Origin: an uncultured Campylobacterales bacterium
GTDB lineage: Bacteria; Campylobacterota; Campylobacteria; Campylobacterales; CAZCQG01
Assembly: GCA_964500775.1 (NCBI GenBank)
Contig: CAZCQG010000004.1
Location: 19,383-83,382 of the forward strand
Reading direction: 5' to 3'
DNA: 64,000 nucleotides
Each line of letters begins with the position of its first letter. Position 1 is the first letter of the stretch. The position numbers and the translations under genes were made by a program. The notes under the pieces are model-generated. The model made no database searches and was not told where the DNA came from. It saw only the letters and a program-made list of their open reading frames with translations. Positions 1 to 13,730 of this stretch are shown in pieces.

Positions 1-63
1 TGAAGTTTATCGTACTATTTGTATGAGGTTTGTGTAAAATGAAAAAGCTTAGGAGAAAATACT

Positions 64-1164
64 ATGAAAACAATATCAATATTTAACAATAAAGGTGGTG
101 TCGGCAAAACAACTCTTACATACCACTTTGCAAATGCTTTAGCAGAGTTGGGACATAAAACATTAATTTTTGATCTAGACCCTCAATGTAATGTCACCAT
201 AATTTCTATGGATGAAGAAAAGGTTCATGATTGTTGGGCGAAAGAGGATGACTTTATTGATGACTACAAAAGCGCAAGGGATAAATTAGATAGCGAAGAG
301 TATAAAAAAATGTTTGACGAAGCTAGATCTGTTCATTTTCTCTTAAAACCGGCTGTTGATGGTGTTGATTCTGAATATATTGCTAAGCCTTTTGAATTAA
401 AAGAAAATCTCGCAATTATTCCCGGCAGGCTTACGATGCATTTATATGAAGATAAAATCTCCAATGTTTGGAGTGATGTATACAAAGGAGACCCTCAAGC
501 GATAAGGATAGTTACGCAGATTAGAAAACTTGCTATTAAATATGCAGAAGAATATAAATATGAGTTTGTGATTATGGACACCTCTCCTAGTCTAGGTGCT
601 TTAAATAAAGTTGTCATTTCCACAACAGATGGTTTTGTAATTCCCGCAATGCCCGATTTGTTTTCTCTATACGGCATTCGTAACATCGGGAACGCGTTAA
701 AAACATGGAAAAAAGAGTTTGATATGCTTATGCATTTTTTGTCTGCCGACAAAAAAAAGGAGTTTCCAGAAAAATATGTGAGATTGCTTGGATATACAAT
801 TTATAATGCAAGAAAATATACAAAATCAACAAATAACACATGGTCATTGGCACAGGCTCATTATAACTATGCCAAACAAATTCCTGTAACAATACAAGAA
901 TATATTGATAATGAAATATGGAAAAATATACCAAATGATTTGCTTTCAAAACCGATAGGAGACACATCTGTAATGCATTCTCATAATACACTACCAAATA
1001 TGGCACAAAAGTATCATAAACCGATTTGGGAAGTACCAAATACTGACTTAGATGAGCAAGACAAACCTACCGTTAGTGGAAATCAGTCTTATTACTATGA
1101 AACAAAGGATAAGTACAAAAGTTTCACAGAAGATTTACTATCACGCCTAACATATTTGGATTAA
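64..1164 (+). CDS. Orphan ParA/MinD/Soj-family P-loop ATPase with about 100 aa of extra C-terminal sequence
   Basis: 366-aa ORF. Deviant Walker A IFNNKGGVGKTT (K10..T17), DLDPQ A' motif and hydrophobic Walker B FVIMDTSPS. AGGAG lies 8 nt upstream of the ATG. No parB-like partner follows; the C-terminal third has no motif I recognise. Confidence 0.8.
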   Translation: MKTISIFNNKGGVGKTTLTYHFANALAELGHKTLIFDLDPQCNVTIISMDEEKVHDCWAKEDDFIDDYKSARDKLDSEEYKKMFDEARSVHFLLKPAVDGVDSEYIAKPFELKENLAIIPGRLTMHLYEDKISNVWSDVYKGDPQAIRIVTQIRKLAIKYAEEYKYEFVIMDTSPSLGALNKVVISTTDGFVIPAMPDLFSLYGIRNIGNALKTWKKEFDMLMHFLSADKKKEFPEKYVRLLGYTIYNARKYTKSTNNTWSLAQAHYNYAKQIPVTIQEYIDNEIWKNIPNDLLSKPIGDTSVMHSHNTLPNMAQKYHKPIWEVPNTDLDEQDKPTVSGNQSYYYETKDKYKSFTEDLLSRLTYLD

Positions 1165-1167
1165 TAA

Positions 1168-1821
1168 ATGGATATTGAAAAAATATTACAACTTTTTGAT
1201 GCTAGATACGATGAGATTGAACGACTAAAAAATCAAGTTTATGATTTTTTTAAGTCTAACCGAAAATTAAATTCCGGTACGCCAGCTATCATTCATTCGC
1301 TAAAAGCAAGGGTTAAGGACAGAGTACACCTTAAAGGGAAGCTTGAAAGAAAGTATGCCGGAGGAGAGAGTACAGATGATATAAACCTATTTGATAATGT
1401 AACGGATTTAGCAGGTGTTAGGGTAATACATCTTTATCAAGATCAATTTCGGCATATTCATAATGCTATAATGGATAACGTTAACGGTAAAAATTGGGTA
1501 TTGGGTGAAAAACCAAAAGCTTATACATGGGATCCCGAATCTAAACTTTTTTTTGAAAAATTTGATTTAGATATTGAATTAAAAGATACTTATTATACGA
1601 GCATACACTATTTAGTAAAACCTCACAAAGAGTTTCCTTTTTATTGTGAAATACAAGTTAGAACACTTTTTGAGGAAATTTGGGGTGAAATTGACCATAG
1701 TGTAAACTACCCGAAACCAACAGATAATATTGCCATCAAAGAACAACTTAGAGTTTTATCAAAACTTGTTGGGGCTGGTAGCAGGTTGGCTGATTCAATT
1801 TTTAGAACAATCAGTAATTAA
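1168..1821 (+). CDS. RelA/SpoT-domain protein (single-domain small alarmone synthetase-like pyrophosphotransferase)
   Basis: 217-aa ORF starting 3 nt after the ParA-like stop. SLKARVKDRVHLKGKLERK, D80-LAGVRVI, YTSIHYLV and E161-IQVRTLFEEIWGEIDHSVNYP align by eye with the RelQ/RelP synthetase core. No HD hydrolase domain. Confidence 0.8.
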   Translation: MDIEKILQLFDARYDEIERLKNQVYDFFKSNRKLNSGTPAIIHSLKARVKDRVHLKGKLERKYAGGESTDDINLFDNVTDLAGVRVIHLYQDQFRHIHNAIMDNVNGKNWVLGEKPKAYTWDPESKLFFEKFDLDIELKDTYYTSIHYLVKPHKEFPFYCEIQVRTLFEEIWGEIDHSVNYPKPTDNIAIKEQLRVLSKLVGAGSRLADSIFRTISN

Positions 1822-1830
1822 AGGACTTTT

Positions 1831-3192
1831 TTGCAATCAATATTCAGAGAATACGACATTAGAGGGATTTTTGAGAGGGAGTTGACGTTTGAAAGCGTGA
1901 GTAAAATCGGGTATTTTTTGGGGCTGGAGATTAAAAAGATCGGGGAATATGTCTCCATAGGATATGATGCTAGGATTCATTCGCCAAAGCTTTTTGAGTG
2001 GCTCTCTTCAGGTTTTAATCATGCGGGTGTAAAAGTGCTTGGGTGCGGCTTGGTGCCTACTCCGGTAAATTATTTTAGTAATTACACGAGTTTTGAGGGG
2101 ATCGTCCCGAGTGGCTCGGTGATGATCACGGGGTCGCACAATCCACCCGAATACAACGGCTTTAAGATCACGCTTGACAAGGCGCCATTTTTCGGGGAGC
2201 AGATATACGCGCTCGGAAAAAAGGTGTTGGAAACTCACATCCAAATCCCCCTAGATTCCACCCATACGAAGATCGATGCTTTGGAGCAGTATATCGACTA
2301 TATGGTCACGGAGTTTGCAGCACTCAAAGGCGAAGAAAATATCGTGTTAGATTTCGGCAACGGCGTTGGGAGCGTGGCGCTTTTGCCGATTCTTAATAAG
2401 TTAGGAATCAAATACAAAGCCCTCTATCCCGACCCCGACGGCAATTTCCCAAACCACCATCCAGACCCAAGTGAAGAGGAGAATCTAGAAGACTTGAAAC
2501 ACGCGATAGGATTCTTGGATATAGGATTTGCTTTTGACGGTGATGCCGATAGGATCGCGCTGCTCACGAAGCAAAACAATATCAAAGGCGATATTATCGC
2601 TCTCCTCTTTGCCAAGCGAATGCAAAATCCGCTCGTCATCGGCGAAGTCAAATGCTCCCAAGTGATGTATGACGAGATAAACAAAATAGGACGCGCGGTG
2701 ATGTACAAAACGGGGCATAGCAACCTCAAAGTCAAGCTCAAAGAACTCAATGCCACGTTTGCCGCGGAGGTGAGCGGACACCTCTTTTTCAACGACAAGT
2801 ATTTCGGCTATGATGATGCCCTCTACAGCGCATTAAGAATCTTAGAGCTGCGCCATCAAGGGGTCGATTTTGATGCGGAAGTAGAAGCGCTGCCGAAGGT
2901 CTACAACACCGAAGAGATAAAGGTAAAAACGACGGAGGAGAAGAAATTTCGTATCATAGAGCAGCTTCAAGAGCTACTCAAAAATCCACCCGAGGATTTC
3001 CCGAAGATCAAAGAGATCATCACCGTCGATGGTCTAAGAATCGTCTTTGAGCACGGTTGGGCACTAGTGCGTGCGAGCAATACCACCCCTATACTCGTGA
3101 CTCGCTTCGAGGGAGAGAGTTTGGAGCTGGCGGAGCTCTATGAAGTGAAAACAAACAGGCTCATCCAAAAAGTCAAGGATTCGCTCTCTTAG
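1831..3192 (+). CDS. Phosphomannomutase/phosphoglucomutase (alpha-D-phosphohexomutase family)
   Basis: 453 aa. Phosphoserine loop TGSHNPPEYNGFK, metal loop FDGDADR and sugar loop AEVSGH. TTG start with AAGGA 5 nt upstream. Confidence 0.9.
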   Translation: MQSIFREYDIRGIFERELTFESVSKIGYFLGLEIKKIGEYVSIGYDARIHSPKLFEWLSSGFNHAGVKVLGCGLVPTPVNYFSNYTSFEGIVPSGSVMITGSHNPPEYNGFKITLDKAPFFGEQIYALGKKVLETHIQIPLDSTHTKIDALEQYIDYMVTEFAALKGEENIVLDFGNGVGSVALLPILNKLGIKYKALYPDPDGNFPNHHPDPSEEENLEDLKHAIGFLDIGFAFDGDADRIALLTKQNNIKGDIIALLFAKRMQNPLVIGEVKCSQVMYDEINKIGRAVMYKTGHSNLKVKLKELNATFAAEVSGHLFFNDKYFGYDDALYSALRILELRHQGVDFDAEVEALPKVYNTEEIKVKTTEEKKFRIIEQLQELLKNPPEDFPKIKEIITVDGLRIVFEHGWALVRASNTTPILVTRFEGESLELAELYEVKTNRLIQKVKDSLS

Positions 3193-3195
3193 AGG

Positions 3196-3693
3196 CTATT
3201 TGTCAAGCGACTGCACCGCAAGTCGCTCTATAAGCGTGTTTATGAGTTCGCCGTTTATCTTTTTGTCCCACTCTTTGACACGGAAGACAAACGAGCTTTT
3301 AAACATACTCTCCATATAGTTTGTAAAGACTTTTTGATTCTCAATATATTCTTCCATTATCGCCCGAAATATCTCGGGATTGAGTATCTCTTTGTCTTTG
3401 GCGAGGATGTCTTTGAGTGCTTTTTTTGTCGCTTTTTTCTTTAGAGCTTCAAGTATCGCCTCTTTGTCGCTAAATTCTAAACAACAGTCGATCAAATCTT
3501 CGATAAAGAACTCCGTCTTCACTTTCATTTTCATCGCATTGATTTTTTTTGCACTCTCTTTACTCTCAAATCCGCACGAATATGAAACCATAAATCCAAT
3601 GCCTATAAGATAGTACGTCTCGTAAAACGCCGCGATTTGCGCTAGATTGTCATGTACGACGAAATCATTGGAATGCTCTTGTGCCTCACTCAT
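3196..3693 (-). CDS. Hypothetical protein, no recognisable motif
   Basis: The ORF track gives 3196..3771, but that start lies 86 nt inside the upstream gene. The internal ATG at 3693 (MSEAQEH...) leaves only an 8-nt overlap with the upstream TGA. Start choice is uncertain. Confidence 0.5.
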   Translation of the reverse strand: MSEAQEHSNDFVVHDNLAQIAAFYETYYLIGIGFMVSYSCGFESKESAKKINAMKMKVKTEFFIEDLIDCCLEFSDKEAILEALKKKATKKALKDILAKDKEILNPEIFRAIMEEYIENQKVFTNYMESMFKSSFVFRVKEWDKKINGELINTLIERLAVQSLDK

Positions 3694-4489
3694 AGCTGCT
3701 GCCTCCCCGTTGTTGTTGTAAAATCTCAATCTCCTCTTTGCTAAATCCCGCTTCCAGTCTCGCTGCGACATTCAGCTCTTTGTTTAGCTTTAGCAGTCTC
3801 GGATAGTGTCTCTCCACTATCTCAAAAAACACCTCTCTATCTCTCCCCTCTTTCTTACATATAAAATCGAACCAAACGTTCCCTTTTTTAACGTGACTTA
3901 TCTCATCTCTCAAAATAACTTCCAAAGATTCCAATATCGCGTCTTTGTGATTGGGGTCGTTGTGCTCTATCTTTCTCCTAAGTGCTATGTTTGCATCTAG
4001 TCCGTTCGCCTCAAAACCCATCGGTATGAGTGCCATCCTCTCCAAAGCACTTTGTGTTTTGATGGCAGCATTAAATAGCCCGCCATGCACATTAAAATCG
4101 CCGTACTCGTATCCTAGACTATTGAGGATTTTACGTATACCGATGAAGTGCTCGACCTCCTCCTTGGCTACCTCTAGCCAATCCTCATAGTACAAATCGG
4201 GCAATCCGTCAAACCGATAAATAGCATCCAGTGCGAGATCTATCGCAAAAAACTCTATATGCGCGATGGAATGCAAAAAAAGTGCCAATCCCTCGTCCGT
4301 GAAAAGCTTTCGTCGTTTTCCTACATCGCGAGGATTGACACTTTTACACACATACTCATACGTCGGCTTTTCCCAGTTTTTTTTATTTCCTATTTTTTCT
4401 TCGTATTTTGTTTTCCCTATGGAAGTCACTAACCGCAACTTCTCGTCTACTTTGGTACAAAAAAGTGCCTCTTCTGTCGCTCTTCTCAT
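3686..4489 (-). CDS. Ferritin-like (DUF455-type) di-iron protein
   Basis: 267 aa. HSIAHIEFFAIDLALD plus two ExxH motifs (EEVEH, DEISH) are spaced as in ferritin-like/MiaE-like four-helix bundles. Confidence 0.55.
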   Translation of the reverse strand: MRRATEEALFCTKVDEKLRLVTSIGKTKYEEKIGNKKNWEKPTYEYVCKSVNPRDVGKRRKLFTDEGLALFLHSIAHIEFFAIDLALDAIYRFDGLPDLYYEDWLEVAKEEVEHFIGIRKILNSLGYEYGDFNVHGGLFNAAIKTQSALERMALIPMGFEANGLDANIALRRKIEHNDPNHKDAILESLEVILRDEISHVKKGNVWFDFICKKEGRDREVFFEIVERHYPRLLKLNKELNVAARLEAGFSKEEIEILQQQRGGSSYE

Positions 4490-13365: not shown

Positions 13366-13442
13366 TGGCGGAGCCGACGAGGCTCGAACTCGCGACCTCC
13401 TGCGTGACAGGCAGGCATTCTAACCAACTGAACTACGGCTCC
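13366..13442 (-). tRNA. tRNA-Asp (GTC)
   Basis: Cloverleaf by eye: acceptor GGAGCCG/CGGCTCC, anticodon loop CTGTCAC, T-loop TTCGAGC, encoded CCA. Confidence 0.9.
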
Positions 13443-13449
13443 GCATCTA

Positions 13450-13525
13450 TGGTGGTCGTTGTAGGACTCGAACCTACGGCATCCACCTTGTAAGGGTGGC
13501 GCTCTACCAACTGAGCTAAACGACC
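13450..13525 (-). tRNA. tRNA-Val (TAC)
   Basis: Acceptor GGTCGTT/AACGACC, anticodon loop CTTACAA, T-loop TTCGAGT, encoded CCA. Confidence 0.9.
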
Positions 13526-13547
13526 GTGAAAATATTGTGAGAAAAAG

Positions 13548-13623
13548 TGGCGACCCCTAGGGGATTTGAACCCCTGTAGCCACCGTGAAAGGGTGGTATC
13601 CTTGGCCACTAGATGAAGGGGTC
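13548..13623 (-). tRNA. tRNA-Glu (TTC)
   Basis: Acceptor GACCCCT/AGGGGTC, anticodon loop CTTTCAC, T-loop TTCAAAT, encoded CCA. Confidence 0.9.
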
Positions 13624-13654
13624 TTACTTGTATAAGACATTCAAATTTAAAGGA

Positions 13655-13730
<76 letters not shown>

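Follow-up and report, generated by a model that had tools for sequence, protein, structure and literature searches.

In the PANGU system, a YejK-like nucleoid protein activates the small alarmone synthetase (SAS) GRel, which makes pppGpp after phage-induced genome degradation (bioRxiv 10.64898/2026.04.06.716658). A rare dyad of a ParA/Soj-like ATPase and a HEPN protein of the MAE_18760 family was proposed computationally, with the ATPase cast as the antitoxin (Anantharaman 2013, PMC3710099). No ParA partner appears among the toxic SAS (toxSAS) systems in the text of Jimmy 2020 (PMC7229694), and the literature yielded no account or test of a ParA-type partner for either an SAS or a SIR2 effector. 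Here we describe a gene pair at the start of a 64,000-nucleotide stretch of DNA (hereafter, the window) from an uncultured Campylobacterales bacterium (GenBank assembly GCA_964500775.1, contig CAZCQG010000004.1, positions 19,383 to 83,382 of the forward strand). The first gene encodes a ParA/MinD-type ATPase, and the second encodes a single-domain SAS. The two are inherited together as a self-contained, horizontally mobile two-gene module. Judged by sequence, the pair is best classed as a toxSAS-type, ATPase-gated two-gene defense or toxin-antitoxin module, and we lean toward the reading that it is an abortive-infection or toxin-type phage defense module.

A preliminary description of this DNA had called the module undescribed. 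That stands insofar as we found no functional description, but the combination has been catalogued, as "ParA/AAA_31 + RelA_SpoT," system #110 of the P2 hotspot, where it is counted 29 times and the comment field is blank (Rousset 2022 Table S5A/B), and the ParA/Soj and HEPN dyad of 2013 is a forerunner. The pair is therefore catalogued yet uncharacterized, and only partly undescribed. Its sequence is not in the Rousset 2022 table of tested systems, and the tables of that study (Table S5B rows 128-129, Table S1A) show cluster representatives, not individual sequences. The same Escherichia coli ATPase cluster is also listed there with a 131-amino-acid (aa) DUF5855 partner (Table S5B row #129, 19 occurrences); none of the seven complete E. 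coli genomes having this ATPase carried that variant. Kaur 2020 was considered as a precedent and rejected, as the MinD/ParA domains in its vWA-MoxR systems are inactive and unrelated.

The two genes and their proteins

The ATPase gene occupies window positions 64..1164 on the plus strand and encodes 366 aa (Pfam AAA_31, 7e-29); the SAS gene occupies positions 1168..1821 on the same strand and encodes 217 aa consisting of a RelA/SpoT SYNTH domain (Pfam RelA_SpoT, 4.7e-16). As the preliminary description had it, the open reading frames (ORFs) are codirectional and lie 3 nt apart. They share one reading frame and are linked by TAATAAATG, the junction reading TAA-TAA-ATG (positions 1162..1170, plus strand). 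From inspection of the sequence, the ATPase gene has a Shine-Dalgarno motif, AGGAG, at positions 51..55 (plus strand), 8 nt before its ATG, and nothing comparable precedes the SAS gene. Since the SAS gene lacks a ribosome-binding site of its own, its translation is probably coupled to that of the upstream ATPase gene. Promoter and terminator scans around the pair returned background-level signals only.

The ParA/MinD hallmarks attributed to the first ORF held up. Besides AAA_31 it matched Pfam CbiA (8e-16), and K10-GGVG-K15-T, D37/D39 of DLDPQ, and D172 were invariant in a 25-sequence family alignment. The ATPase thus carries the ParA-type deviant Walker A motif expected of a ParABS ATPase (KGGVGKT with D37/D39 and D172) on a Soj/ParA fold. 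It nevertheless scored far below the cutoff of every NCBIfam partition equivalog, e.g., 64 versus 180 bits for ParA_partition. Signatures of its subfamily are NNKGGVGKTT, DxDPQCN, and a C-terminal MHxHNTxPxMAQxYHxPxW, the last of which reads AQxxHxPI in the wider subfamily. The best solved relative was an uncharacterized protein, 3PG5/DIP2308 (E = 5e-26 over the full length), followed by Soj/ParA; 3PG5/DIP2308 and the ATPase have a C-terminal HxHxxPxxAQxxHxPI in common. The preliminary description had placed about 100 extra residues at the C terminus, and this proved to be wrong. Profile positions 1-171 of AAA_31 cover residues 1-219 of the ATPase, and Soj chains (~250 aa) align in Foldseek across the entire AlphaFold2 (AF2) model (pLDDT 83). 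The extra ~110 residues are therefore mostly internal insertions, and the ParA fold is collinear with Soj to its end. Homologs of the ATPase fall into ~2,670 clusters at 90% identity and are ~55-60% identical between phyla.

The SAS matched Pfam RelA_SpoT (PF04607) with 59.5 bits against a cutoff of 27, as the sole domain and without an HD domain, in agreement with what had been read from the letters. The catalytic motifs, a basic ATP-binding strand, D80-LAGVR85, Y143-TSIH147, E161-IQVRT166, and H177, align with those of RelQ. Among 25 homologs, R48, K50, D80, G83, R85, Y143, S145, H147, E161, Q163, R165, T166, and H177 were invariant, which bears out the earlier statement that the motifs are intact. 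A family-specific insertion is found at W121-DPE124. Homologs number ~2,850 clusters at 90% identity, with ~55-60% identity between phyla. As judged from its sequence, this is an RSH-superfamily, SYNTH-only protein with all catalytic motifs intact, and it is a predicted toxic effector.

The AF2 model of the SAS (pLDDT 91) has one domain, and its nearest folds in Foldseek were RelP/RelQ (TM 0.63 to 0.69; 0.68 for RelQ), followed by CapRel (0.58) and FaRel2 (0.44). The family profile searched against the Protein Data Bank gave the same leaders, with RelP/RelQ at 1e-9 to 1e-10 and CapRel at E = 1.7; FaRel2 gave no match in that search. Resemblance of fold did not extend to family membership. Against the equivalog NF053588 (GTPPhKinYjbM), the SAS scored 31.4 bits where the cutoff is 320, with a match limited to residues 144-188, and by this score it falls outside the housekeeping RelP/RelQ (YjbM/YwaC) family. 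The equivalog score thus does not show the RelP or RelQ affiliation that would have counted against a toxin-type module. The family is mildly acidic (median pI 6.2), and this and the RelP/RelQ-like fold are weak indications of a nucleotide acceptor rather than tRNA.

The outgroup proteins nearest to the family are only 32 to 36% identical to it. They are 360 to 390 aa long, have two domains, and have no adjoining ATPase. They are found on pXO1-type plasmids of Bacillus anthracis and Bacillus cereus, on the Paracoccus plasmid pMARC1, and in a Ralstonia phage. Their second, C-terminal domain is unannotated (L090 3914-4996 and L091 1712-2881 are among the loci). This architecture resembles that of GRel/Pag1B or of CapRel-type fused systems.

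Pairing, distribution, and genomic setting

We surveyed one genome per species, 185,579 species in all, with an alignment-based profile; single-sequence patterns gave no matches. Relatives of the SAS occurred in 334 species (~0.18%), and the best 80 loci were analyzed. These come from Pseudomonadota, Bacteroidota, Bacillota, Chloroflexota, Poribacteria, and Nitrospirota, and also from Nitrospinota, Elusimicrobiota, Acidobacteriota, Desulfobacterota, and Campylobacterota. The pair is spread over at least 11 bacterial phyla and one archaeal metagenome-assembled genome (MAG) at 50% identity or more. The archaeal case, a Methanothrix harundinacea MAG (L020 94-1888), has an intact pair with an SAS ~56% identical to that of the window, and reflects either cross-domain transfer or contamination of the bin.

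The pairing was uniform throughout. An ATPase of the same clade lay directly upstream of the SAS gene, on the same strand, in all 79 genomic loci having upstream sequence, and an ATPase held this position in all 22 viral-contig loci from IMG/VR. The same pairing was seen in a Caballeronia megareplicon and in E. coli. The adjacency thus extends well beyond close relatives; its absence there would, by the preliminary description, have spoken against the proposal. Across 76 family loci the junction was most often a 4-nt overlap; an 8-nt overlap was also usual, and most junctions fell between -8 and +14 nt. No third gene was conserved in 82 loci, whose flanks were unrelated. Neither was there an adjacent gene for ParB or another centromere-binding protein, the SAS gene always being the one after the ATPase gene, so the earlier remark that no parB accompanies the ATPase applies to the family as well. 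The distance matrices of the two proteins were correlated (Mantel r = 0.83), a value reached in none of 2,000 permutations.

Over 100 loci of the family were seen, none with an SAS that lacked the ATPase. Plasmid pNFSY02 of Nostoc flagelliforme carries an orphan ATPase that belongs to the SAS-linked clade (L283 4001-5128; 569 bits); it adjoins an integrase gene and a ParDE toxin-antitoxin pair, and neither an SAS nor a remnant of one was found within 4 kb. An orphan ATPase seen once and an orphan SAS not seen at all fit antitoxin and activator models alike. In a single MAG contig (L076), an ATPase gene with one in-frame stop stands beside an intact SAS gene, which is weak evidence on this choice. 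A second locus, L085, was tried as a damaged-ATPase case and rejected, because the ATPase there is an intact member of a divergent clade.

The module recurs in defense islands and in prophage defense hotspots. Among the families listed, the neighbors of the best 80 loci were a housekeeping mix with some defense and mobile genes, including PD-Lambda-1, type IIG restriction-modification (R-M), AbiEi, GajB, DRT, AriA/AbiLi, and IS200. The closest relatives of the window pair, with SASs 65 to 67% identical, are defense-island loci flanked by type I or IIG R-M, CBASS, SoFic, and DruE-like genes. In one of them (L198), SNF2 and IIG methyltransferase/Eco57I genes precede the pair, and Fic, a 1,696-aa DEAD-MZB helicase, and SoFic follow it. 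In another (L200), the pair lies between HsdR/M/S with HATPase_c_3 on one side and the CBASS genes SMODS and S_4TM on the other. In two of the closest relatives (L198 7648-8445 and L199 4341-5138), the SAS stop codon lies in a 4-nt overlap with a Fic-domain gene, which may make the unit a variant of three genes or may encode an independent toxin next door. Viral contigs carried genes for portal, large terminase, head, and baseplate proteins no more than 8 kb away from the pair.

In E. coli, the pair was present in 7 of 5,426 complete genomes, with mutual identity of at least 99.8%. The E. coli ATPase (516 bits) is 49% identical to that of the window and the SAS (271 bits) 46%, and the pair has a GC content of 36% versus 49%. 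In both contexts examined, it belongs to a P2-like prophage and has gpA/DinI on one side and the portal gene gpQ on the other, an interval that corresponds to the old/tin locus, a hotspot of anti-phage systems (Rousset 2022). One P2-hotspot copy is that of E. coli CEA224S (NZ_CP166080.1 905900-907683; WP_089588522.1 and WP_201794907.1). In some P2 prophages (E. coli CFSAN061762, L285 3512-4653), a gene of the ComF family (phosphoribosyltransferase-like) and a hypothetical gene adjoin the pair in this hotspot and are possibly a second small defense system.

Within the window, the pair has a GC content of 33.0%, compared with a mean of 42.2% (standard deviation, 2.8), the lowest value among all segments of equal size. 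Only 0.05% of such segments were as low, and every one of them overlapped the pair. Composition, which had been dismissed earlier as weak evidence, is thus strong evidence of a foreign origin for the pair.

The left flank, which lies largely outside the window, was recovered through the ATPase on a Logan contig (L088) that shares 1,169 identical nt with the window and reaches 720 nt further left, making 783 nt visible before the ATPase. The order from left to right is the end of a PGM_PMM_IV gene, an 82-aa ORF, a PemK/MazF-type toxin gene, and the ATPase gene. The toxin gene (PemK_toxin, 1.3e-23), the 3' end of which makes up window positions 1..37 (plus strand), ends 26 nt upstream of the ATPase gene and is overlapped by the 82-aa ORF, which is antitoxin-like with a weak CcdA match (L088 199-757 for the two together). 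An extended -10 element, TGATATAAT, spotted by eye only, lies ahead of these two genes (L088 170-178). The PemK/MazF pair is a separate toxin-antitoxin unit that is not conserved with the ATPase-SAS module elsewhere; together, the two pairs form a small AT-rich accessory islet between the pgm-like gene and a phosphoglucomutase/phosphomannomutase (PMM) gene. No parB, parS, or plasmid backbone was found in the left flank on L088, where the preliminary description had allowed that a partition locus or an integrated plasmid might come to light. To the right, the next gene after the SAS gene is the PMM gene (positions 1831..3192; four-domain by Pfam), and a scan found no terminator-like site between them, as had been stated. 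On the minus strand, at positions 3196-4489, a DUF455 gene (9.8e-73) overlaps by 86 nt a 191-aa ORF without a Pfam match, both being convergent with the PMM gene. Farther along, four tRNA genes are clustered within 360 nt at positions 13369-13730 (minus strand).

Effector swapping and the role of the module

The ATPase of the window belongs to a subfamily that pairs with more than one kind of effector. In a sister clade, related to the window clade at hhalign E = 8e-45 over ~300 columns with 30% identity, the next gene encodes a SIR2_2 protein of ~290 aa, and the two genes often overlap by 4 nt. This partner was present in 24 of 25 metagenomic and 23 of 23 viral-contig loci, that is, in 47 of 48 loci with downstream sequence (L094 4001-5883, L093 4001-5892, L095-L120, L202-L223, and L245). 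The ATPase-SIR2_2 pair also occurs in Rhodococcus, beside a type I R-M system, and in Paeniglutamicibacter. The SIR2 domains of these proteins match those of ThsA, LmuA, and Dsr1/2; we found no description of the pair in the literature and no PADLOC model for it. In other clades of the subfamily, the tightly coupled partner is instead a HEPN_RiboL-PSP protein, in three independent arrangements on four viral contigs (L260 5042-5662, L265 3026-3619, and L279/L280 5066-5734, with gaps of +3, -8, and 0 nt, respectively). A third ATPase clade, intact, accompanies a true member of the SAS family in one Bacteroidota MAG (L085). One ATPase subfamily with SAS, SIR2_2, or HEPN_RiboL-PSP partners amounts to effector swapping. 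Defense systems are typically built in this way, with one conserved NTPase and toxic effectors that can be exchanged, and the SIR2 and HEPN sister systems suggest a larger unrecognized family.

More remote ParA-like ATPases (145 to 185 bits) were set outside the system, as their neighbors (dGTPase-like HD, integrase, DUF1156 methylase, and kinase genes) are mixed and loosely linked. At one locus (L249 4978-7290), a full-length BREX-type PglZ gene (PADLOC, 1.9e-281) overlaps by 4 nt the gene of a ParA-like ATPase from another clade of the subfamily, an arrangement seen once; a ParA-like ATPase may thus be an accessory component of some BREX-like systems. At another (L136 2152-3705), a remote ParA-like ATPase is followed after 224 nt by a response-regulator-PglZ fusion.

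Obligate pairing, mobile spread, location in defense islands and the P2 hotspot, effector swapping, and intact catalytic residues are the reasons for which we favor a phage defense module. The earlier view of the locus as a coupled toxin- or defense-type module, and neither a partition nor a housekeeping locus, draws support from the pairing, the islands, and the P2 hotspot. In such a module, the ATPase is predicted from its sequence to be a regulator, sensor, or neutralizer. It would be made first, with the SAS translated by coupling from the same mRNA, and would bind the SAS and hold it inactive while in a resting nucleotide, dimer, or DNA-bound state. ParA-type ATPases normally sit on the nucleoid or on DNA. 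An infection-linked cue, either a phage protein or an altered nucleoid or DNA, would shift the state of the ATPase, which would then release or activate the SAS. The active SAS would move pyrophosphate from ATP to a purine nucleotide, yielding (p)ppGpp- or (p)ppApp-type alarmones; this synthesis would drain ATP and GTP, and growth and phage replication would stop. The sister clades may follow this scheme while using a different effector to arrest growth, either a SIR2 NADase or a HEPN RNase.

A broader proposal, which we put forward tentatively, is that this ParA-type ATPase subfamily could be the common sensor and regulator of a widespread two-gene immune superfamily with swappable effectors that deplete nucleotides or RNA. 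An ATP-bound dimer sitting on the nucleoid would guard host DNA or detect a hijacking phage protein, and infection would switch the effector on, much as YejK does in PANGU.

Several observations weigh against defense. Many loci of the family lie among housekeeping genes, and the window pair itself has sugar-phosphate mutase genes to its left and right. The family hardly occurs on plasmids or in isolated-phage genomes, and its identity of 55 to 60% across phyla is unusually high for defense genes. The preliminary description had pointed to PADLOC as a check, and PADLOC v2 has no model for the pair. The ATPase matched no model over its full length, only the P-loop of PDC-M28B (residues 3-39), and the SAS likewise matched none, its hit to PDC-S33 being at E = 0.006.

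Some of these observations would suit a (p)ppGpp synthetase with a physiological task, the ParA-like ATPase setting its activity or its place, for instance at the nucleoid or the cell pole, in stress signaling and not in conflict. The nearest solved relatives of the SAS are the housekeeping proteins RelP and RelQ, the sequences are highly conserved, and metabolic genes flank many of the loci, that of the window included. We judge this improbable nonetheless, given a patchy occurrence across phyla in ~0.18% of species, a foreign composition with locations in prophages and defense islands, a score that misses the RelQ equivalog cutoff tenfold, and an ATPase subfamily that also pairs with SIR2 and HEPN toxins. 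Some doubt is also warranted, though less of it, about a classical type II or IV toxin-antitoxin (addiction) pair, in which a toxic SAS would have the ATPase as its antitoxin and postsegregational killing or selfish spread would maintain the pair. An antitoxin-like gene comes first and overlaps a toxin-like gene, the SAS was never seen as an orphan whereas the ATPase is one on the Nostoc plasmid pNFSY02, a MazF pair is next door in the window genome, and the same proposal was made in 2013 for the ParA/Soj and HEPN dyads. Yet an active ATPase of 366 aa is a costly antitoxin, and plasmids, on which addiction modules flourish, seldom carry the module. The P2 old/tin hotspot, the R-M, CBASS, and SoFic neighbors, and the swapping of SIR2 and HEPN effectors are, moreover, hallmarks of immune systems. 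Overall we consider addiction rather unlikely as the main explanation, although it and defense are not mutually exclusive.

That the ATPase is a partition protein, a ParABS remnant of a plasmid or prophage standing by chance beside an unrelated SAS, seems scarcely credible. The ParA fold and motifs are present, and the same hotspot holds a putative partition system in about one-quarter of P2-like phages (Rousset 2022). Chance would have to account for 100% co-occurrence with an SAS in over 100 loci, for reading frames that overlap, and for the lack of a ParB or any conserved third gene, including a left flank without parB; the low partition equivalog score of the ATPase (64 against the 180 bits of ParA_partition) also speaks against it.

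If the defense reading is true, ParA/MinD-type ATPases, known for positioning DNA or protein cargo, join the sensors of bacterial immunity, and toxic alarmone synthetases gain a third control logic after small or fused antitoxins and the nucleoid protein of PANGU. The orphan structural-genomics protein 3PG5/DIP2308 would gain a likely role. For annotation, the labels "ParA family protein" and "(p)ppGpp synthetase" should not be taken to mean partition and stringent-response genes here. The family is broad, with ~2,700 to 2,850 protein clusters at 90% identity, and its representative in the P2 hotspot of E. coli makes the question directly testable.

Comparison with described systems

The described toxSAS proteins (FaRel, FaRel2, PhRel, PhRel2, and CapRel; PMC7229694, PMC9712102) are likewise single SYNTH-domain RSHs encoded in conserved, often overlapping two-gene units on mobile elements and prophages. 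Their partners are small antitoxins, an SAH, or a fused domain, whereas here the partner is an ATPase of 366 aa, and the SAS of the pair is not significantly related in sequence to CapRel (E = 1.7) or FaRel2, its fold being nearer to RelP/RelQ. With RelP/RelQ, which gave the best structure and profile matches, the SAS has DxAGxR, the G-loop Tyr, EIQxRT, and N- and C-terminal helices in common. It differs from them in an identity of only 17 to 21%, in failing the YjbM equivalog, in its W-DPE insertion, and in having an obligate ATPase partner and a mobile, patchy distribution.

On the side of the ATPase, the ParA/Soj and HEPN dyads (PMC3710099) also have a ParA/Soj-like ATPase gene upstream, co-oriented, and in the antitoxin position of a two-gene operon. 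Their toxin is a HEPN RNase of the MAE_18760 family and not an RSH synthetase, and HEPN_RiboL-PSP was found here only with other clades of the ATPase subfamily. Anantharaman 2013 names neither SAS nor SIR2 partners, and the likeness to its ATPases is by description. PARIS (AriA/AriB) and SIR2-HerA resemble the pair in having an upstream NTPase and a downstream toxic effector and in their presence in P2/P4 hotspots. In those systems the effector is kept inactive until triggered, as is predicted for the pair. Their NTPases are an ABC/AAA_15 protein or a HerA/FtsK hexamer, in contrast to the SIMIBI ParA/MinD dimer class seen here, and the effectors differ.

The closest mechanistic analog of the pair, compared by description, is PANGU. 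Its type I form (Pag1A and Pag1B) is likewise bicistronic and combines a DNA- or nucleoid-associated partner with an SAS effector, and PANGU too is a modular family with interchangeable effectors and a broad spread over phyla. Pag1A is a YejK/NA37 protein, whereas the partner in the pair is a ParA-type ATPase of the AAA_31/CbiA families. Pag1B has a C-terminal DMK (DNA-mimic) domain that extends to at least residue 314, a domain the 217-aa SAS of the pair lacks, and the alternative effectors of the pair's ATPase subfamily are SIR2 and HEPN proteins.

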